From assembly GCA_019057385.1 (NCBI GenBank), contig JAHQJS010000003.1, positions 64,001 through 128,000 of the forward strand: DNA of 64,000 bases, in the 5' to 3' direction. Of this stretch, positions 1 through 62,799 are shown piece by piece (within the stretch, counting starts at the first letter, position 1; each line of letters starts with the position of its first letter). The notes under the pieces are model-generated. The model was given only the letters and a program-made list of their open reading frames with translations. It made no database searches and was not told the DNA's origin. Origin of the DNA: Candidatus Borrarchaeum weybense. Lineage in GTDB: Archaea > Asgardarchaeota > Sifarchaeia > Borrarchaeales > Borrarchaeaceae. The position numbers were made by a program, and so were the translations under genes.

Positions 1-6
1 GGCGTT

Positions 7-705
7 TTGAAGTTTAAGTATCTAGAAAAAGAGAATGTCAATAATCTGTTTAAACACAATTTTGCACTTCTTCTTTATACACTTGAATCAGGAGCAAATA
101 ATACCGAGTTCATATACATTAAATTGGATTATGGAACTATTACTGATAAGAAGGCTACAGATATTTTAAAAGTTGGTTACAAAAAGGTTTTAGGAGAATT
201 AAAAGAAGATTTAGCGAAATTTAAAATATATGAAGAAAGTAAACAAACACCTTTTGAATATGTAATGGTTCTGCTTTGGACACAGATATTCCCTGAGATA
301 ATCAAAAAAAGTCGTGTAGAGAAGATAATCGAATGGAAAGACAGGAAGGAACACATATTCGAAGTAAAATTAGATGAGTTAATTGAATATCTACATAAAA
401 TGTATACATTGCCATCTTTGAGTGCAACTGACAAAAAGCAATTTACAACCAAGATAATACAGAAAGCCATGACTATGTTTTCAAAGGTTAAAATTAAAAG
501 TGAAAGAACTAGAAAACTCGAACCTTTGGTTACGTATGGTGAAAAAGACGGTTCTATGGTATTTAGAGTGGTTTATAAAAAACTTCGGGAGAAGAAAGAA
601 TTGGACTTCATTCTTAAGTCGATTTATTTGGAACAAGGTGAAATTGAAGACAAGGAAACTCAAAGAGAATTAATTAATTATCCACGATTAGATACATGGT
701 TTTAA
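7..705 (+). CDS. Hypothetical protein, probably 5'-truncated by the window edge; lies upstream of cas7-like gene
   Basis: 232-aa ORF at the window start; no recognisable motif. Confidence 0.6.
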   Translation: MKFKYLEKENVNNLFKHNFALLLYTLESGANNTEFIYIKLDYGTITDKKATDILKVGYKKVLGELKEDLAKFKIYEESKQTPFEYVMVLLWTQIFPEIIKKSRVEKIIEWKDRKEHIFEVKLDELIEYLHKMYTLPSLSATDKKQFTTKIIQKAMTMFSKVKIKSERTRKLEPLVTYGEKDGSMVFRVVYKKLREKKELDFILKSIYLEQGEIEDKETQRELINYPRLDTWF

Positions 706-26872: not shown

Positions 26873-26997
26873 TATGAATTAAATCTTATCGTTAGTTCTT
26901 TCATCAATATAAGATAACTTAGTTTGATTCTTACCGTTCCTTTCATAATAGACATCTATTACAGCGAATAGTGTCTATCCACCCACGATAAGAACAT

Positions 26998-27268
26998 GAG
27001 TGGAGGGCCCGCTAGGACGGTTAAGCGGGATACCTACCGCCATATAGGGTGCAGGCCTTGCGTGAACGAAACGATGATTTATTATCAGCGTTCCCGCAGA
27101 ATCGACGGCGTACGGGAGTGCTGGGCTGAAGTCCGTGAAGTGGTCCCGGGGCGAATGCTTAAACCTCCGGGTGCCTCATCTTACCATCAATTCTCACTTA
27201 TATACTGGAGGACCTGCTTTATAAACACCACGCCTCACGCGTTCACTGTGGAACCCCTTGCCCGCGAA
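26998..27268. ncRNA. Unidentified GC-rich structured RNA candidate
   Basis: GC-rich island between convergent genes with stems CCCGCT/AGCGGG, CAGCGTTCCCG/CGGGAGTGCTG, CCCGGGG/CTCCGGG and long-range GTGAACG/CGTTCAC. Confidence 0.5.
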
Positions 27269-27304
27269 AGAATCGTCTATATTTGTCTATAAAATAAATA
27301 ACTG

Positions 27305-27595
27305 TTAATCACCCTCTTGTAACTTTTGTTTGATCACAAAAACTCGTATTTTTTCCTCTGCAATTATAAGTGTATCATTGATGGATTTAATTACAGAATG
27401 AGGAATTAAAATTGTTCCTTTCTCATCGCGCGGAAATTTTTCAATATCTGGATGTTTAGTAGGCTTCACACACACCGCTAATAGGTGGCCATCTCGCGAA
27501 TTAATTATGAAATCAACTACCTTTCCCATAGCAGAACCTTTTTCATCAGTTACAGAAATACCAACTAAGTCCCGGATATCGATGATTTCCGACAT
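27305..27595 (-). CDS. PRC-barrel domain protein
   Basis: DLVGISVTDEKGSAMGKVVDFII...ILIPHSVIKSINDTLII. Confidence 0.85.
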   Translation of the reverse strand: MSEIIDIRDLVGISVTDEKGSAMGKVVDFIINSRDGHLLAVCVKPTKHPDIEKFPRDEKGTILIPHSVIKSINDTLIIAEEKIRVFVIKQKLQEGD

Positions 27596-27912
27596 TTTTC
27601 ATCCCATCAGACCTTGCATGAGTCGGTCTATGTTAAATCAATATTTTTTGCTATTAATATCATCTGCTTCGAGTTATAAATTAGTCAAGTCATATTGACA
27701 GAACCTTTTCAAAAAGCAAAAATGAGAGTAGAATTGGAAAATTCAAAATTCGATTCAATAAATCTCGAATGAAAAGTGAAAACTAAAGAACGCTGTGCAA
27801 TTATCTTCGTTTAAATCATACAAAAGTCTATCATAATGCAGGAAATAGGAGGGAATAATCCCTCCTTATCTAATATTTACAGGAATGCCGATTAAGTCGC
27901 GGATATTTTTTT

Positions 27913-28000
27913 GACATTTTTCGTCCCCTGCGAGTCATTCATTCCCAACAAGTGAGGCGTCGGACCTCTAATTTGGTTCAGTCTCATGCACAAGAACGTG
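27913..28000 (-). ncRNA. Conserved structured RNA scaffold, copy 2 (full unit ~27847-28023)
   Basis: Reverse complement CACGTTCTTGTGCATGAGACTGAACCAAATTAGAGGTCCGACGCCTCACTTGTTGGGAATGAATGACTCGCAGGGGACGAAAAATGTC. Confidence 0.75.
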
Positions 28001-28091
28001 TCCCCCGTGATATACGAAGAACATTCCGCCTTGTAACTCATTAAACCTCTTGAAAAGAGTCTATATAAACACCGCGATTCAAAACAAAGAT

Positions 28092-28919
28092 TCATTCTTG
28101 CCATGTATACAAACCACTCTTCAAGTCATCAAGATAGAGATTTACCATAAGGAGTAGGTGATTTTTTAAAGATGAAAAGCCAAATTTTAGCGCTTCGCTG
28201 ATCTTATCAAACGCTTGACATTTTCGAATATAAGTATAAAGAGCATAAGGGGAATATTGACGCCTTTCTATCTCTATTTTTAATACATCGAAATCAATTT
28301 TTTCTAATTCTGTCACACGATAACGAGAGGACGCTGACCATCTAAATTTTCGAGAAATCATTGCAGATAGTCGGTCATAATGTTGTAATAAATAAAGCCA
28401 AAGAAAATCTTTTTCATCTATATCATAATTGTGATGATTCTTTGCAAGTTTGAAGACATCTTCGTCAGCTATATCAACATCAGTATAAATTTTACTTGGA
28501 TGTCGATCAGTGCCTACAAAATCATGCAGGAGCATTGCTATAATTAACTTTTCCTGCATATCTGAGAGTTTAGGAAGTTTCTTACGAATCTTAATTCTTC
28601 TTGTAGTATAGAGAGGCTTTTTCTTGAGTTTTTTGAGAGAAGTCCAAAAGATTCGTCCCATCCCCTCACATGTATAACTTCCAACACTATCAATAGCAAG
28701 TGCTTCTTCAAGTTTATGTTCTGAAACGATAAACTCAATATTACCAAACCACGCCCTAAAGGTCATTGGCGCACGTCTTTGTCCTACCGTTAATTTTCCG
28801 AATACCCTGGGACGACCTTTTATGGTCATCGCTCCAACGTCGGTAACTCCAAAATGTCTACGCTTTGAAACAATAGGAGTTTTTGTATAACCAATTAATT
28901 TAAAGTATTTCTGTGGCAT
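28092..28919 (-). CDS. Cas5-like RAMP fused to HD nuclease domain
   Basis: N-terminal FKLIGYTKTPI strand and G-loop VGSYTCEGMGRI; C-terminal LLHDF...NHH...YDRLSA HD motifs as in Cas10/Cas3 HD domains. Confidence 0.68.
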   Translation of the reverse strand: MPQKYFKLIGYTKTPIVSKRRHFGVTDVGAMTIKGRPRVFGKLTVGQRRAPMTFRAWFGNIEFIVSEHKLEEALAIDSVGSYTCEGMGRIFWTSLKKLKKKPLYTTRRIKIRKKLPKLSDMQEKLIIAMLLHDFVGTDRHPSKIYTDVDIADEDVFKLAKNHHNYDIDEKDFLWLYLLQHYDRLSAMISRKFRWSASSRYRVTELEKIDFDVLKIEIERRQYSPYALYTYIRKCQAFDKISEALKFGFSSLKNHLLLMVNLYLDDLKSGLYTWQE

Positions 28920-29024
28920 TTTATTCCCTCTTATAAGATTTTACCTCCTCTTTGAACAAAAGAGAGGAGATATAAACCTTGCCAAAGTAAACACGTTTGC
29001 AACTGTTGTTTGTAAAGTGGGTAT

Positions 29025-29111
29025 GACATTTTTCGTTCCTTGCGAGTCATCCGTCCCCAACAATTGAGGCGTCGGACCTCTAAGCTGGTTCAGTCTCATG
29101 CACAAGAACGT
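29025..29111 (-). ncRNA. Conserved structured RNA scaffold, copy 3 (full unit ~28945-29134)
   Basis: Reverse complement ACGTTCTTGTGCATGAGACTGAACCAGCTTAGAGGTCCGACGCCTCAATTGTTGGGGACGGATGACTCGCAAGGAACGAAAAATGTC. Confidence 0.75.
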
Positions 29112-29173
29112 ATCACTCACATCAGTAAGTGATAAACCGTAATGAGATGAGAAAAAAAGTTGAAATAAATGTG

Positions 29174-29983
29174 TCACACAGCCACCTTCTCATCCTGTTT
29201 ACTCATAGTATTCAAAGAAGTTCTCCAATCCTCGATTTTACTTAGAGAAAGCGGAATTTCAGTGGTTTCTTCTATAATTTTATAGTTTCCTTCGCTATCC
29301 TCTTCGACTCTTCGAAAAGTCTCAACCTTCTGAAGAGCAATATTAAGGATTTTGACGCAACCATATCCACTTGACCGTCCTGCCCCAAGAATTTCTACGT
29401 AGAGCATTGCTTCTATAAGAAACTTGATTTCAACATCAGTTAGATTAGTGACATCAATTTGAAAGGAAAAAAATCCACTGAAATAACTCTCACGAAAGTC
29501 TTGGATGGGAGTACCATCATAGGCAAGCGCTATTCTGTTTTCACTAGAGATGTGGACATTTTGAACTGGCACTATTGTTATAAAATCTTTGTGTTTAATC
29601 GAGGCAATAGGGTCTGCTGCGACAACAATAGAGGACTTTTCACGGAAGGTGCCAAAGATTGTTCTGAGAATACAGGGAGGATCGCATGTACCAAGCGCAT
29701 GAAATCCTTGCGGAAGAACACTTTTACCATCTTTAAGTTCAGTTTTTTCAGAACTATGACATACTTCGATGTTGCAGTCTTGAGCAAGTTCCATACAGGC
29801 ATGTCTTAACATCCCTCGGATACCTTTAATGTAATAAAATTTAGTATTGAACGTTTTTTCTCCATTCACATAAGGAAATTTCCCTAACAAGAGCATGCTA
29901 GAATTTTTCTGAATCGAGGCATTGATAGGCTTTGCTATGGGTGTAAAGGCGTGAACAACTATCTGGTTTTTGATTTTTCTCAT
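29174..29983 (-). CDS. Cas7-like RAMP protein (copy 2)
   Basis: IKGIRGMLRH, CDPPCILRTIFG, G-loop LGAGRSSGYGCV. Confidence 0.8.
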   Translation of the reverse strand: MRKIKNQIVVHAFTPIAKPINASIQKNSSMLLLGKFPYVNGEKTFNTKFYYIKGIRGMLRHACMELAQDCNIEVCHSSEKTELKDGKSVLPQGFHALGTCDPPCILRTIFGTFREKSSIVVAADPIASIKHKDFITIVPVQNVHISSENRIALAYDGTPIQDFRESYFSGFFSFQIDVTNLTDVEIKFLIEAMLYVEILGAGRSSGYGCVKILNIALQKVETFRRVEEDSEGNYKIIEETTEIPLSLSKIEDWRTSLNTMSKQDEKVAV

Positions 29984-30326
29984 GTTTCCAACCTCAAATA
30001 TATTTAGTACAAGTACCTATATAAACCTTGCTCAAAATAAACACTTTTTCTACTCTTGTTAGTAAAATGGGGTTTAAAATGACTTCCTTTTTAGAAATAA
30101 AGTATTTTAAACAGGTTTTATGTGAAAAACCATTGTATGTTTAGAACCTGATTTATAAATCACAATGTAACATTCAATTTACATCATCATTTTTTTAAAA
30201 GAATAGTTGTTTGATTTAACAAAATTAAGTTTCTTCGGGAATTCAAAAAGAGTACATTGATGGTATCAACTAAACTAAAAATCGTTCGAAAAAAATAATT
30301 GTTCCATTGATGGTTGCTAATAAAAA

Positions 30327-33300
30327 TTAGGGCAATAGATCTTTTACTGTAACTGGAGGACCCTTTTTCTGTGGTTTATAGATGCCTTCTAAATGTTGGA
30401 ATCTTTCAAACATTAAGTGGAGAGTTTCCTTATCTGGAGCGTAAATAAAGGGGATGAATCGCTTATTTTCTAGCAAAAAATCCTTGAGTTGTACTGCACA
30501 CTGCCTTAAAGCCTCCATTACTGTCATCTTCTGTTCAAGATAGTATATTTCTTGATTGAGTATATCATCAACTAGTCTCTCAACTTTGTAGTGTCCATTC
30601 CATGTTAGGTGATAGAATTGTTCGTGTTCAAGCGTTTTACGCTTCTTGAAATCAGCTTTTGTAAATTCACCATACAAACATGCTAAAATTAGGGTGAGCC
30701 TGAACAAGGGAATAAACATTTCTCGAAAATCAAAGATAGTGCCTAGAAAGGAGCGTTGGGTTTTTTTAAAGTGCAGTATCAGTTCATCCGGTACCCAAGA
30801 AAATCCTACTTCAGCGAGTGCTTTTCGACAGTAAAGGTTAAGATGACGATAAACAGCATTGAGTGCAGCACTAAAGGGTGTACGTGCTTTTACTTCTCCT
30901 AAAAGGACAACGGTGGAAATATAGCGTTCTAGGGTACGACTAATGATCTCAAAGTAGGTTCCTCTTAGCAAACGTTTAGGGATTTCCCAGGCAACTCCTT
31001 CAACTAAGCCTTCAAACCCACGGAGGTTGTCAATATTACCCCTCCAATAGAGAAAAGTATATGCTACTCGATCCAGCAATTTAGATAAGAGCTCTTGAGC
31101 ATTTTCAGCAGATAACAACCCCTCTTTTTCAACTTGGAGTACTGAATTGGCTAGACCTATATCTTTACTTATTGTCAGAAGCCATGCTAGCAATTTGCCT
31201 CGTTCTGTTCCTCTGATTCGCTGAGCGGCATATTTCAGTTCGTCGGCTACCTGTTGTTTCTTTGGAGTTAGTTTATTTTGTGCAAAGAAACTACCTTTTG
31301 GTGTATTTGCATCAATGAGTTTCTTGCTATATTTCTTACGAATGTATTGCGATATATCGCCACCTTCAATGATGATATTACGGATAGCACCGACTAAATA
31401 CCGTTTTGTTTCTCTTCCGTCTTTTAGTGTATGAACAAATCGTTTTTTTCTAATATCGAGCCTTTCATTACACTTGACACGGATATTTCGTTTTGGTCTT
31501 CTGATATAGACCTTTGTCTTTTTAACTCTCTGAACATAATTCCCGGGCTTACCTATAAGCAGTTCTAAATTTGTTTGCAATACATCACGATAACCCGGTT
31601 TTATTACAAGTTCACCATTAACGGTCAAATGATAACTGGAATTGCATTCAGGACAGACTGTATATTCCATATATGAGGACGGTAATTCCACAATGCCACG
31701 AGGTTTACAGTTTAAACATGTAATGCTGCCATTTGTTTCTTGCAATATTCTTATTTTACGTTTTTTTAACCTTTGAACATTTTCGTGATGTTCGCATGCA
31801 CTCTTCCTTGGTGTGGCGTAAGGATTTCTTGCTCGTTTTCCTACTTGTTTGTTTAATTTGCAGTTTAACACACAAACATGTGCATGTTTCGATCTTCGAC
31901 GGTCCTTTATAGGGTTTATCTGAATGAACTTACAAGATCCACAGGTGAGCCGAAGATGTTCAGGAATACTTGCGTTCACATCAGCTACATAGATTTTGGG
32001 GCGCCCTCGAAGCTGACCTTGAGAGATAACCTGTATTTGCTCTTGTATTTTTAACTGCTTGATGTGCTTAACTATCGTAGTATAGTGAACATTTTGATTG
32101 TATTGCTTGCGAACCTCTGACAAAATAAAATCGTAAGAAATGATTCCATGTTTTTTAATAATGTTATAAATTGCTTTATGAAGTCCGGGATATGGTTTCG
32201 GTCTTTGCTTTGGATACCAACGTCTCTTTTTAACTTTTTTCGCTTCATTAGCTTTAAGCTCATTATATTTAGCATTTAGTTTAGTTGAGAGTTCTTTAGC
32301 GACTCGTGCTTCTCTCAGGTCTCTTTGTCCCAAAAAGCTATAACTTGCTTCTGCGATCCATGAGGCTGTTTTCTTATGAGATTCAGCATCACCCAGTCGT
32401 ATTTTTGCCTGAATTGCAGCTTCTGTTACTGTAGATCCTTGACTTAGTAACTTAATGAAGGCTGTATACTGTTGGGCGTTATACCGTTTGGTGTTACTTA
32501 GTTCACGCATACATTGCCCAACAAGTTTGACTAATTGTTGGGAAAACTCCTGTTCTGAAGAGGAATGATTTGTGACAAAAAACTTCTTGATCCTTATTGC
32601 AATTTTGATCGGCAGTAAATATTTACTTGCCCAACGACCCTTGTCTGTTGCACAGAACCTTCCTCCATTTTTTCTAACAAAACCTTCCGTGATCAGCGTT
32701 TGAAGGATACCCTGTTTCTTATTTCTTTCATCAGACTCAGGTTTAGCCAATAGATCTCCTTTTAATTGCTGTTTGAAGTCTTTCAATTTGTCATAGGTGA
32801 ATGGTGTGAGAAATAAGCGAAGTTCGCCGTATTTAACCTTGTTTGCAGTGGTTCTTTTCCTGATCCAAATGAAAAATGTTCGAGTTAATCGTTTCAAGTC
32901 GTTCGGCAGGGAACCTTTGTGTGCGTCGAATAGTATTAACAGTAAATGATTTTCATTATTAAGTTGGCATAGTTCCTCTTCTTTGGTCATAAGTGCACTA
33001 TTCATTAGTTCGAACCAGTTCCGTAGCATTGTTTTGTATTGATGAAAGAAATAGTGCCTTTCAAGTTTGCTCAGTAATTGATTCGAGGATACAGAACCCT
33101 TAGCTATTAATGTAAGTACAATATCTGCCATTGAAGAACGTGCTTGGCTTTTAATGCTATGTTCTTTCACTATCAGTTGTCCTTCAACGATTTGTATCTC
33201 CTTTTGTTTCAGAAGTTCTTGGTCGTTTCCAACAAAGATCAAGTCAGCATACCCAATCCTATGATGTCGCGGTCGTGCCGCCCTGCCACTCAGTTGTATA

Positions 33301-34310
33301 AGCAGTTGGGGGCTGAACATTTCAGCATCGTTGATTATCACTCGTTTAATCGGAAAGTTAACCCCCTCTCCGTATTGGATTGTTGAAACAAAGACCTGAA
33401 ATTCGCCATTGTTAAGTCGCCTCATAGCTTCTCGTTGTTCTTTCTTACTGAGTCCTGCGTGACTGTAGCCAACTTTGAGATCGAAACCAGAATTCTTGAG
33501 AAAGATCTGCAATATTTCAGCATATTTCTCAACCTGTTTTCGTGTGTAACAGAAGAGTTGCACGATTTTGATCTGATGTTCATCATTCGAAGGTTGCTCA
33601 AAGGTCTTTTTTATCAATCTAGCGAAAAGAAAAATCTTTTTTCGTTCAATTTGTTCTAATTTATTGCCTGAAATTCCAAAAGTCGACACAATAAGTGTCG
33701 ATCGCCGCTCTTTTGTGTGTATAAGATGAGCATCGAGCCAACTTGCCAGATCTTCAGTATTACCTAATGTAGCCGAGAGATAGATAATTTGCGGACGAGG
33801 ACGCAACCACGCTTTAGCATTAACAATTGCGGTTTCTAGGTGCACGCCCCGCCCTTTTTTGCCTAAATTGTGCAGTTCGTCAACTACCAGCAATCCCACT
33901 TGGTCTAAGAATGGATATTCAAAATGTTTGGCTAGTAGTCCATTAAAGGATTCGTAGGTGATGACGAGAATATCCGCACTTTGAATCTCTTCAGGAGCTG
34001 GTCGATCATCTCCGCTGACCCTGAGGATGGTACATGTGTCTTGATACCACTCTTTGAATCTATCGTACATTTGATCGATTAGACGCTTGGTCGGCTCAAG
34101 GATCACACAGCGCAAACCTTTTCCTAGTATTTTTGTAGACATTATTTGAGCGATCAAGGTTTTTCCCGAAGCTGTGGGAGAGTACAATATCTTATCCTGT
34201 CTTTGCTTCCCAGAAAAACATGCTTCCCATTGAAAATCGTAGAGAGCTTTGATGTCAGCCTGTTCTAATCGTTGACGAATGAATTCGTAGTTAAACCCTC
34301 TTTTTGTCAT
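30327..34310 (-). CDS. SF2 (Ski2/Hel308-like) helicase - wHTH/Zn-finger - Cas1-like integrase fusion
   Basis: SPTASGKT, VVDELH, LSAT, QLSGRAAR; CxxC pairs; C-terminal IDNLRGFEG...PFSAALNAVY...GFSW...LILH...IFDFREMF...FIPF follows the Cas1 catalytic-domain pattern. Confidence 0.8.
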   Translation of the reverse strand: MTKRGFNYEFIRQRLEQADIKALYDFQWEACFSGKQRQDKILYSPTASGKTLIAQIMSTKILGKGLRCVILEPTKRLIDQMYDRFKEWYQDTCTILRVSGDDRPAPEEIQSADILVITYESFNGLLAKHFEYPFLDQVGLLVVDELHNLGKKGRGVHLETAIVNAKAWLRPRPQIIYLSATLGNTEDLASWLDAHLIHTKERRSTLIVSTFGISGNKLEQIERKKIFLFARLIKKTFEQPSNDEHQIKIVQLFCYTRKQVEKYAEILQIFLKNSGFDLKVGYSHAGLSKKEQREAMRRLNNGEFQVFVSTIQYGEGVNFPIKRVIINDAEMFSPQLLIQLSGRAARPRHHRIGYADLIFVGNDQELLKQKEIQIVEGQLIVKEHSIKSQARSSMADIVLTLIAKGSVSSNQLLSKLERHYFFHQYKTMLRNWFELMNSALMTKEEELCQLNNENHLLLILFDAHKGSLPNDLKRLTRTFFIWIRKRTTANKVKYGELRLFLTPFTYDKLKDFKQQLKGDLLAKPESDERNKKQGILQTLITEGFVRKNGGRFCATDKGRWASKYLLPIKIAIRIKKFFVTNHSSSEQEFSQQLVKLVGQCMRELSNTKRYNAQQYTAFIKLLSQGSTVTEAAIQAKIRLGDAESHKKTASWIAEASYSFLGQRDLREARVAKELSTKLNAKYNELKANEAKKVKKRRWYPKQRPKPYPGLHKAIYNIIKKHGIISYDFILSEVRKQYNQNVHYTTIVKHIKQLKIQEQIQVISQGQLRGRPKIYVADVNASIPEHLRLTCGSCKFIQINPIKDRRRSKHAHVCVLNCKLNKQVGKRARNPYATPRKSACEHHENVQRLKKRKIRILQETNGSITCLNCKPRGIVELPSSYMEYTVCPECNSSYHLTVNGELVIKPGYRDVLQTNLELLIGKPGNYVQRVKKTKVYIRRPKRNIRVKCNERLDIRKKRFVHTLKDGRETKRYLVGAIRNIIIEGGDISQYIRKKYSKKLIDANTPKGSFFAQNKLTPKKQQVADELKYAAQRIRGTERGKLLAWLLTISKDIGLANSVLQVEKEGLLSAENAQELLSKLLDRVAYTFLYWRGNIDNLRGFEGLVEGVAWEIPKRLLRGTYFEIISRTLERYISTVVLLGEVKARTPFSAALNAVYRHLNLYCRKALAEVGFSWVPDELILHFKKTQRSFLGTIFDFREMFIPLFRLTLILACLYGEFTKADFKKRKTLEHEQFYHLTWNGHYKVERLVDDILNQEIYYLEQKMTVMEALRQCAVQLKDFLLENKRFIPFIYAPDKETLHLMFERFQHLEGIYKPQKKGPPVTVKDLLP

Positions 34311-34851
34311 AATAATGATCTGCCCCCTCAGCTTCGTCTAATTAGATATTAGCTAAAATTCATTTATAAAGCGGGTAAACTTTCAAATCGATTGCTAGAA
34401 TGTTCTATTCGATAAAAAACAAGTTTGCCTTCGGCATAGTTACCTTCGCTATGTCGCTTCTCAAAAAAAAACCACCGTTGAAGAAGGTAATTAATCCTTC
34501 TCTTCAATGATAGAGGAGGGTTCGATTTTAATCACCTATAGAACATAATGAAATACAGAGGACAAAAAACTACAATAAGACTTATTGCTTCCAAAGTATT
34601 TAAACTCGACAACTCGTGATTTAAGTAGTTAATCAAGAAGGCTAAACTTCTTAGAAAATATGGTAGAAGAATCTTCATCGAAAAAGGTTTTTGAGGGAAA
34701 AGAAAAACATCTGTGACATTGTTCCTACTATAAGTTTGCCGATAAAGTTAAAAAAAAGACTTCGTATAGATATTGTCCAATACTTTGGCACAATAATGTA
34801 ACTCGTGGACTATTTTAATAATATAAGTTCCCTTGTAATCAAACAATTGAA

Positions 34852-35028
34852 GCGGGGGTGTCCGAGATCTCCTCTCAATGGAGAGTAACGGGAACTTGGC
34901 CAAAGGAGCAGGACTGAGGCTCCTGTGGCGTAGAGAAGCATTAGATGCCTTAGGTTTCGCGATCGCCTGCGTGGGTTCGAAGGAATAAAGCAAAATGGCT
35001 TATTCCGAAAATCCCATCCCCCGCACCA
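34852..35028 (+). tRNA. tRNA-Leu(GAG) with three non-canonical introns
   Basis: GCGGGGG...CAGGA-CTGAGGC-TCCTG...CCCCCGCACCA; same layout as tRNA-Leu(CAG). Confidence 0.88.
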
Positions 35029-35117
35029 CTCTTCACTCACGGAACAAATTACTGGTTTTTAATGGGTTAAATATGCGCCTTAATGTTGCAACATAATGTA
35101 TTGTCAATTTTCTCTTA

Positions 35118-35432
35118 GTGAGCTACCTCGTGCTAAAGCTTTGAGGCTTCCTGCTTCTACGACAGACTCGATCCCCTGGCGGGTTACGGAGGTCTTATCT
35201 CCACAGGCTTAACATCCCTACGCCCCGTAGGTACGGTTAACCATCGTGATGCAATCGAAGTATGCATCTTGACTACAAGTGTGCGTGTGATCCCTCCAAT
35301 TGCAGTTGATATCTCGTCATACCAGCTATATAACTCTTAGGGAGACCCCTCGATGCAAGTGATAAAAGTGAACACATATTATTGCAATTCATCACCACGC
35401 TGAAGCTTTGGTGCTTTCTTGCTCAGCTACTC
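35118..35432 (-). mobile_element. Non-autonomous IS200/IS605-family element (no ORF)
   Basis: Both ends and an internal block (CTCCACAGGCTTAACATCCCTACG.CCCGTAGGTAC) near-identical to the tnpB remnant at 62211-62799; subterminal hairpins. Confidence 0.8.
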
Positions 35433-35454
35433 GTAATTTTTCATTAGATTTCTT

Positions 35455-62210: not shown

Positions 62211-62799
62211 GTGAACTACCTCACGCTAAAGCAGTGAGGCTTCCTGCTTCCACGACCGAACTTGCTGTCACATAGGGAATACCATTTAAGTATTCCAGTG
62301 ATACCACAGTAGAGGATTCAGTCTCCACAGGCTTAACATCCCTACGTCCCGTAGGTACAACCACGTGTTGGTTTAATCCTTCGGTCTCGATATTCACACT
62401 GGCATTATGGTCTCTGTCCATCACTAACCCACAGACCTCACAGACATAGACTCGTTCATCCAACCCGATTTCCCGGATATTACCGCAACGCGAACAGGTT
62501 TTGGTAGAAGGAAACCACCGATCCACTTTAATCGCAGTCTAATGGAGTATGCACCTTTACTTCAAGTGTGCGTGTGATCCCTCCTTCGGAATGCGGCTGA
62601 TAGCATGCTCTGAACTGTGACACTACCAAAAGTCTTAGTGTTGGAGGTAGCGATCCCAGCCTTTCACTCGCTAGTCATCTTAGTATAAGAGGCACACCAC
62701 TATTAAAGTATTAGACAGACCCCTTAATGAAAGTGAACATACACACCTACCGCAATTCATCACCAAGCTGAAGCTGTGGTGCTTTCTTGCTTTGTTCAA
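62211..62799 (-). mobile_element. Internally deleted IS200/IS605-family element
   Basis: Subterminal hairpins CCTCACGCTAAAGCAGTGAGG and CACCAAGCTGAAGCTGTGGTG; carries the tnpB 3' end; ends shared with 35118-35432. Confidence 0.85.
62221..62526 (-). pseudogene. tnpB: Truncated TnpB (Zn ribbon and RuvC-III only)
   Basis: FPSTKTCSRCG...YVCEVCGLVMDRDHNASVNI. Confidence 0.88.

Follow-up and report, generated by a model that had tools for sequence, protein, structure and literature searches.

An array-less ARAMP island in an Asgard archaeon with a candidate guide RNA matching the altered start of the neighbouring PRC-barrel gene

The island, its proteins and its structured RNAs

The DNA analysed here is a 64-kb stretch of the genome of Candidatus Borrarchaeum weybense (contig JAHQJS010000003.1; 64,000 nucleotides, hereafter the window), which contains archaeal genes including those for RpoG/Rpb8, PAC2, archaeosine TGT and ribosomal proteins. 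Its minus strand carries an island that is a member of the ARAMP (Asgard RAMP) system of Asgard archaea and consists, in this order, of a helicase-Cas1 fusion, a Cas7-like RAMP, a first structured RNA (RNA1), a RAMP-HD fusion and a second structured RNA (RNA2); a PRC-barrel gene follows 300 nt further on. The variable segment of RNA2 matches the beginning of this gene, and in related genomes the same gene is uninterrupted. Throughout, G000 denotes the source genome (4.18 Mb), and G001, G002 and G004 are sister genomes of the same genus, which represent different species and not naive strains of the source species. The island and its protein-coding genes are as follows.

27587–34504, minus strand: ARAMP island, ~6.9 kb, without counterpart in the three sister genomes and the metagenome contig L090
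30327–34310, minus strand: helicase-Cas1 fusion, 1327 aa, with Pfam DEAD, ResIII and Helicase_C at the N-terminus
29174–29983, minus strand: Cas7-like RAMP, 269 aa, Pfam RAMPs PF03787 (E 2.9e-6, over the cut-off)
28092–28919, minus strand: RAMP-HD fusion, 275 aa, an N-terminal RAMP (Cas5/Cas6-like) with a C-terminal Cas10-type HD domain

The C-terminal 490 residues of the helicase-Cas1 protein match Cas_Cas1 (PF01867) in Pfam with an E-value of 2.3e-5 and 24.2 bits (cut-off 22.3), and a Cas1-fused helicase is present in six of the ~11 modules of the source genome. The Cas7-like RAMP also matches the Csm3 profile of PADLOC (E 2.3e-8). The RAMP-HD protein has no match in Pfam, NCBIfam or PADLOC and is rare, with only 73 representatives among 1.84 billion proteins. 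Its residues H132, D133, D182 and H254 are invariant. In an AlphaFold2 model (predicted local distance difference test, pLDDT, 88.7) residues 119–275 superpose on the HD domain of Csm1/Cas10 with Z-scores of 8.7 and 7.9, and residues 1–106 match RAMPs (Cas6, Cas5, Csm4 and Csf chains; Z 6–7.6), a fold that does not favour Cas5 over Cas6.

ARAMP, as summarised from Makarova et al (2020, CRISPR J), is an enigmatic, array-less and type III-derived system whose loci contain diverged Cas7 and Cas5-like RAMPs, an associated nuclease and, in most, a distinct form of Cas1 (PMC8730458, PMC12669027). The island shows the same combination, with a diverged Cas7, a Cas5-like RAMP plus nuclease, a form of Cas1 and an Asgard host, and no CRISPR-type repeat family was detected within the window. 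It differs in its nuclease, which is of the HD type, whereas HNH and PD-(D/E)xK are the commonest in ARAMP loci (PMC12669027). A literature search found no paper on an ARAMP RNA, target or mobility, and the scaffolded guide RNAs, their targets, the insertion polymorphism and the altered resident targets described below are new for the system. Elsewhere in the source genome a divergent Cas7/RAMP-HD pair (42% and 34% identical to the module proteins) stands with adjoining genes at G000 C5:80690-82259; no scaffold copy was found near it by BLASTN.

RNA1 and RNA2 belong to a family of which the source genome holds ~25 copies of a ~120-nt scaffold element. An alignment of 20 copies supports five helices, with 92% of cells paired as against 45–50% in slid-partner controls, and with 29 double-sided changes as against 11 in shuffles (none of 500 shuffles reached 29). 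A covariance model detects the family in each of the four genomes of the genus. Beyond the genus it was found in one genome from a different family of that class, which has 31 copies in 2 Mb, and not in the 55 further genomes of the phylum that were searched. Rfam gave no match in the window at gathering thresholds, nor around the module at E ≤ 1. Directly 3′ of the scaffold end, GACGAAAAATGTC, lies a variable stretch, here called the tail. All class I copies have a strong hairpin 41–61 nt past the scaffold, while class II copies have none. Copies behind the RAMP-HD gene have a TATA box ~24 nt upstream of a conserved TTACAAGGCGG, the TATA motif being common to four RNA2 copies.

27913–28073, minus strand: RNA2 gene, with a TATA box at 28073–28061 and the five-helix scaffold running to GACGAAAAATGTC (27925–27913); 134.2 bits with covariance model R1
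27875–27912, minus strand: RNA2 variable segment, a 6-nt linker (27912–27907) and a 32-nt candidate guide, T′ (27906–27875)
27847–27866, minus strand: RNA2 3′ hairpin (dG −14.0), beginning 46 nt past the scaffold end and followed by a T-rich run
28942–29137, minus strand: RNA1, with scaffold 29137–29025, guide 29021–28970 and hairpin 28972–28942; 123.8 bits with model R1
30019–30071, minus strand: RNA1 guide target, the TATA region of the cas7 promoter, 35 nt upstream of the cas7 ATG

RNA2 probably starts near TTACAAGGCGG (28036), so that its conserved structured scaffold comprises 28036–27913, and the hairpin at 27866–27847 with its T-rich run is a probable terminator. Between scaffold and hairpin it has a slot of ~40 nt. 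It is a single unit with its own TATA box, unlike a class 1 CRISPR RNA (crRNA), which is released from a repeat-spacer array by Cas6. We lean towards regarding RNA2 as a guide RNA that consists of one unit and belongs to an array-less relative of CRISPR systems, derived from type III.

The guide of RNA1 is conserved between modules, and the TATA box of the RAMP-HD gene sits in its 3′ end. In seven modules the RNA1 tail matches a site 29–38 nt before the start codon of the module's own cas7. In the present module the mismatches fall at tail positions 8, 14, 20, 24, 26, 30 and 38. Over the seven modules, which are paralogues and so not independent samples, register mismatches occur at positions 8, 14, 20, 26, 32, 38, 44 and 50; 37 of 53 mismatches lie on this one 6-nt register (binomial 1e-17), with eight of eight register positions hit as against six of 40 others (p 8e-6). 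In Cas7 filament structures every sixth guide base is flipped out. Because the mismatch register equals this known geometry of Cas7-bound guides, the tails on this scaffold are real guides, and RNA1 shows the exemption of every sixth position from pairing that is a trait of class 1 crRNA. The periodic mismatches also fix the pairing register, with the spacer starting at tail position 3. The pairing suggests that RNA1 binds the cas7 promoter of its own module and the promoter downstream of RNA1, and probably represses both, as autoregulation through a Cas7-bound guide.

Scaffold copies also occur apart from cas genes. A ~208-nt solo unit (L026:6448-6655, equivalent to G000 C4:903447-903654), made up of a scaffold and 88 nt with a TATA-like box, stands in place of ~37 nt of G004 and looks like a non-autonomous derivative moved in trans. 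At L026:6700-6950 and G004:C118:17380-17640 a scaffold copy is joined directly to the beginning of a small gene that is GIY-YIG nuclease-like, and G004 retains the scaffold RNA and this gene without cas genes.

The RNA2 segment and the start of the PRC-barrel gene

The features needed to follow the relation between RNA2 and its neighbour are these.

27305–27595, minus strand: resident PRC-barrel gene, 96 aa, Pfam PRC PF05239 (E 2.2e-9); orthologues have 117 aa
27548–27579, minus strand: resident target copy, T″, codons 6–16 of the present gene, 26/32 identical to the guide
27587–27846, minus strand: island-borne spacer X, 260 nt, with a TATA-like box at 27682–27670 and the new start codon at 27595–27593
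34505–34535, minus strand: displaced native PRC 5′ end (GTG + 10 codons, VIKIEPSSII), contiguous with the guide sequence in G004, G002, L090 and L091

A preliminary description of this DNA had reported that 27906–27877 matches 27579–27550 on the minus strand at 25 of 30 positions. This match was confirmed, with five differences, and the full homology was found to extend to 32 nt (27906–27875 against 27579–27548, 26/32). As was also reported, three of the five mismatches lie at third codon positions (the codon pairs being CGC/CGG, ATC/GTT, GGC/GGT and CCT/TCT); the other two are at first positions. Against 19,905 random 1.5-kb segments drawn from the genome the 30-mer reached 21/30 at most, and no other site of at least 22/30 exists on either strand of the whole 4.18-Mb genome, so the match is real. 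Chance similarity, contradicted by these scans and by the downstream-match tests and sister-tail controls given below, is already refuted and its probability is negligible. The segment has the sense of the gene, corresponds to its 5′ coding end and has the gene immediately downstream, in agreement with the suggestion that it acts as a guide.

Genomes with an empty site, which had been anticipated, do exist. In G004, G002 and G001 the PRC-barrel gene is uninterrupted and lies beside the tRNA-Leu region, and uninterrupted alleles are also found in two metagenome contigs, L090 (JGI) and L091 (614 nt), the latter reading straight across the junction; the NCBI record of one homologue carries the name 'Promethearchaeota archaeon'. 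Positions 27314–27586 align to G004 at 93.8%, the guide (27875–27906) aligns to the adjacent 32 nt (31/32), and 34504–35121 continues the alignment from the very next base. This collinearity places the ~6.9-kb island inside the ancestral 5′ end of the PRC gene, and the flanks are likewise collinear with G002, G001, L090 and L091. The insertion point coincides exactly with the left edge of the guide-matching sequence. The native start, now 6.9 kb from the gene, runs into an island-borne stop after four codons, and the native 32 nt that once followed it now stand directly after the RNA2 scaffold. The 32-nt guide may either have come in with the island or be native flank left at the junction.

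The junctions could be defined, the left one lying between TCATTG and AAGAG and the right edge at 27586, where homology to the orthologues resumes. A clear target-site duplication, the other feature that the preliminary description had looked to, was not found: there is only an imperfect 7-nt repeat, ATCATTG/ATCATCG, identical at six of seven positions. No terminal inverted repeats were seen at the island, though no systematic search for them was made, and no motif common to the left flanks resembled a protospacer-adjacent motif. A simple target-site duplication was also considered for the longer repeats and rejected, as the island is not flanked by the two 32-nt copies, and a 115-nt 'duplicate' at ftsY is only ~70% identical. 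The native 5′ part is separated from the native 32 nt by the cas genes, for which reason classical att-type integration is rejected too.

It had been predicted that orthologues would match the guide better than the resident gene does, and the identities are 31/32 for G004, 30/32 for G002, 31/32 for L090 and 29/32 for L091. The divergence of the guide from these alleles is no higher than that of the rest of the gene. The resident target, on the other hand, is 26/32 identical to G004, as against 11 mismatches in 237 positions for the rest of the gene (Fisher p 0.008). The polarity is therefore the opposite of that first proposed, in which a related host's orthologue would have been the source of the guide: it is the start of the gene that has been altered, and the guide resembles the native sequence. 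In the register set by RNA1 the guide has 0, 0, 0 and 1 paired-position mismatches to G004, G002, L090 and L091, respectively, its differences from these alleles sitting with one exception on the flipped positions 14 and 26, while the resident target has four paired-position mismatches to the guide (21, 23, 30 and 37). The resident protein reads LVGISVT where all 10 homologue clusters, from a search of 5.8 billion proteins, have LIGIPV followed by N or Q, so that three residues of the target differ from residues that are otherwise invariant. The altered part of the gene is its first 38 nt. The island supplies the new start (MSEII), which is found in no PRC homologue among the 10 clusters, and the TATA-like box of spacer X is the probable promoter of the cut gene. 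Spacer X has no counterpart in 40 relatives.

Within spacer X and the new gene start, GGGATGAAAAATGTC at 27591–27605 (minus strand) is identical at 14 of 15 positions to the 3′ end of the scaffold, stands 11 nt before the resident target and holds the new ATG. The truncated scaffold-like match in spacer X is weak (8.6 bits, E 0.27), and the 15-mer may mark the DNA as self or be left over from an older scaffold.

Other changes are seen around the locus. A second, unrelated insertion of 380 nt (26934–27313) cuts off the last 21 codons of the PRC gene. It is GC-rich and apparently structured, is absent from G004 and G002 and present in L090, and has about seven full or partial copies in the genome. 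A 313-nt element at 35122–35434 is absent at this position from G004 and G002, has related pieces at 62211–62791 and ~50 full or partial genome copies that are 85–93% identical, and resembles a structured RNA or a mobile repeat of the non-autonomous kind; neither element has a match in Rfam. Between them and conserved in the empty-site genomes, ~34855–35030 on the plus strand contains by eye a tRNA-Leu(GAG)-like gene split by extra segments, perhaps introns. ARAGORN reported no tRNA in the window, including this region.

Guides and neighbouring genes at other loci

The relation between guide and neighbour had been likened to one at pyrD, and it does recur independently, at pyrD, ftsY and further loci. 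Four or five RNA2 tails of the source genome have a significant match downstream on the same strand, among them 24/25 at pyrD and 28/34 at ftsY (both with an empirical p ≤ 0.005) and 16/17 at a fourth module (p = 0.015). In the C5 island an internal guide matches DNA just beyond the right end of the island.

At ftsY a 10.35-kb island lies between native codons 1–38 (+1..115; 94% identical to G004) and a 34-nt guide that consists of the codons following them, and it sits exactly before the 34-nt match. To the right of the guide come a hairpin, foreign DNA and then a complete replacement 5′ end, which is ~70% identical to the orthologues until ~10 nt past the target and ~95% thereafter; the resident target has four paired mismatches to the guide. 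At pyrD, where the guide is 36/38 identical to G004, the island has replaced the whole intergenic region and both flanking genes have new starts. The resident pyrD target is without the first 13 nt of the match, and is free of paired mismatches over 25 nt. A search for scaffold remnants in front of the resident targets at pyrD and ftsY gave only noise.

Native sequence begins 6–12 nt past the scaffold at PRC, ftsY and two further loci, C4_525 and C6_562. The right end of the element is precise (scaffold + 8 nt), with homology starting from tail position 9 at three loci of sister species. Of 16 tails in the sister genomes, eight match scaffold-free loci of G000 at 25/30 or better, as against none of 32 reversed or shuffled controls. 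One of these genomes, G002, has a class I guide (47 nt + hairpin) that matches the G000 allele of a ferredoxin-like gene at 40 of 48 positions. The G002 gene itself lies ~250 nt from the guide and on the opposite strand, the copy being inverted relative to its source, and for this reason the guide cannot be trapped flank. The resident stretch is 35/50 identical, with a codon insertion and several residue changes, and the upstream flank is 58/60.

Guides of different sister species map to uninterrupted G000 genes that are clustered at C4:698-708 kb, C6:541 kb and C4:793 kb, which may be insertion hot spots. Two candidate pairs were set aside. In an acyl-CoA-dehydrogenase-like case (G004:C78, G001:C156), not counted, it is more likely that the gene is intact, with the scaffold abutting its start codon and a tandem paralogue 1.2 kb further along; the 15/17 match at C4_523117 (p 0.025) is native flank. 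Six loci of G005 gave no downstream match within 1.4 kb, and the islands C4_421 and C4_1002 are obscured by rearrangements.

Interpretation and comparison with known systems

Read from their sequences, the islands would seem somewhat more likely to be selfish than otherwise: we slightly favour a selfish element guided by RNA, which would recognise empty sites and to which the altered allele linked to it would be immune. Assembled on RNA2, a Cas7 filament that includes the RAMP-HD subunit would recognise the template strand of uninterrupted alleles, which would be cut or marked, for repair from the island-bearing copy or for Cas1-mediated joining. The resident allele would escape through its mismatches to the guide, and the island with its linked resistant allele would spread or could not be replaced. 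RNA1, on the same scaffold, would pair with the island's own cas7 promoter and probably repress it. The invariant HD catalytic residues, the Cas10-HD-like fold of the model and the presence of Cas1 are consistent with such a role. More tentatively, and taken as a whole rather less probably, the ARAMP islands may represent a new class of RNA-guided selfish mobile element. In this, a type III-derived effector (Cas7 + RAMP-HD) would use stand-alone scaffolded guide RNAs, one guide repressing the island promoters and the other recognising the uninterrupted conserved host gene; helicase-Cas1 would join the island in, or renew the guide, and the island-borne replacement 5′ end would keep the host gene working but immune.

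Several observations weigh against the selfish element. At PRC and ftsY the flipped register coincides with codon wobble positions, which makes the register argument for RNA2 only suggestive, and under neutrality both differences between the PRC guide and its orthologues would fall on the register about one time in four. The divergence of the resident targets could stem from relaxed constraint after replacement of the N-terminus. The ftsY guide also has three to four paired mismatches to the alleles of sister species, and downstream of the ferredoxin-like gene of G002 the flank is likewise diverged (45/60). The source of the replacement 5′ ends is unexplained: among 40 relatives no donor for spacer X or the ftsY replacement was closer than the same-genus orthologues (71–73%). 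At C4_525, C6_562 and three loci of sister species no hairpin follows and the tail is simply the native flank continuing without a break; passive read-through covers these cases. Finally, RNA1 pairs fully with the island's own DNA, so that a nuclease active on every matched target would be suicidal, and binding without cutting, or self-discrimination, must be assumed.

Native flank read through into a tail raises the question of whether the PRC locus is itself a passive remnant, with protein-only integration by helicase-Cas1 or host recombination, RNA1 as the only working guide, and the 32 nt as native sequence trapped between the element end and a second, gene-restoring insertion. We think this unlikely. 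The guide does diverge from the sister species just as native sequence would, class II tails are contiguous native flank and the right end of the element is precise like that of any transposon. However, the trapped piece has the length of a guide (32–38 nt), with a strong hairpin behind it at all class I loci, the same scaffold demonstrably bears a pairing guide in RNA1, the inverted G002 copy lies ~250 nt from its source, and the resident PRC target is changed at invariant residues.

Given that RNA1 pairs with a promoter inside the island, RNA2 might also be regulatory, its complex binding the 5′ coding region of the resident neighbour and tuning its expression in the manner of CRISPR interference. 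The start codon and TATA-like box (a probable promoter) that the island gives to the neighbour would fit this, as would the pyrD resident target with its 25 nt free of paired mismatches, though that target has also lost the first 13 nt of the match. Unlike the RNA1/promoter pairs, the pairing between RNA2 and the resident gene has not been kept (four paired mismatches at PRC and four at ftsY), while the PRC guide stays matched to the alleles of other genomes, and a private repressor for each unrelated housekeeping gene is hard to explain; regulation of this kind is improbable. It is very unlikely that the guide serves site defence, destroying incoming uninterrupted-allele DNA (rival elements, transforming DNA) with no spread of the island. 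This would account for the same sequence facts as the selfish element, including the intact HD nuclease residues, and in practice overlaps with it, but it explains neither why the insertion point falls exactly on the guide edge nor the association with Cas1.

Since 2020 ARAMPs have stood as CRISPR derivatives without an array, a known RNA or a known function. The PRC locus supplies a candidate ARAMP RNA and concrete targets, a register for the pairing, and sites that occur naturally both filled and empty, with which the question of what ARAMPs do becomes directly testable. If the RNA-guided selfish element is correct, it would be a third independent route, after OMEGA and CRISPR-associated transposons, by which RNA guidance has entered mobile elements, here with Cas1 and a type III-like backbone, and a natural case of the drive-with-rescue logic so far engineered synthetically. 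Its compact design of three proteins and a single RNA, with an apparently long guide of 32–48 nt, would be of interest for genome engineering, and part of the plasticity of Asgard genomes would be explained, given ~25 scaffold copies here and 31 in the 2-Mb relative.

Like casposons, the ARAMP island is insertion-polymorphic and carries a Cas1 homologue; it differs in having RNA and RAMP genes and neither a clear target-site duplication nor PolB, there being no open reading frame for a family B polymerase in the island. RNA1, though not RNA2, recalls tracr-L of Cas9 systems and CreA/CreR of type I systems as a guide-like RNA with partial, periodic complementarity to its own cas promoter, but it has a long scaffold rather than a degenerate repeat and pairs over ~48 nt. 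With CRISPR-associated transposons and their homing spacers the island has in common that the mobile element contains a Cas effector and that the guide corresponds to a conserved host gene next to the element. Its three open reading frames, however, contain no Tn7 domain (TnsB/TnsC/TniQ), it has no array, the insertion lies at the guide edge as opposed to ~50 bp beyond the far end, and the island both cuts its target gene and repairs it.

Intron-less homing by free-standing homing endonucleases of T4-like phages, such as SegF, and synthetic cleave-and-rescue drives are similar to the proposed element in that the neighbour gene is targeted in the form it has in element-free genomes, with the element's own linked copy resistant through sequence differences; the ARAMP island would differ in recognising, and perhaps cleaving, its target through RNA, and its host is an archaeon. 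In OMEGA systems (IS200/IS605 TnpB, IscB; omega RNA) recognition of the empty site by the guide helps the element to be retained or to home. The island resembles these in having a structured RNA at the element end, with the guide at the 3′ end of the RNA and equal to the DNA adjoining the insertion point; as in OMEGA, a guide that equals the flank would mean that empty sites are recognised. It lacks TnpA and a RuvC-type single-protein nuclease, encoding only helicase-Cas1, Cas7 and RAMP-HD, so that the effector is a multi-subunit Cas7/Cas5-HD type together with Cas1. Also in contrast to OMEGA, some ARAMP units have a closed guide slot followed by a terminator, and the island carries a replacement for the start of the gene it interrupts.

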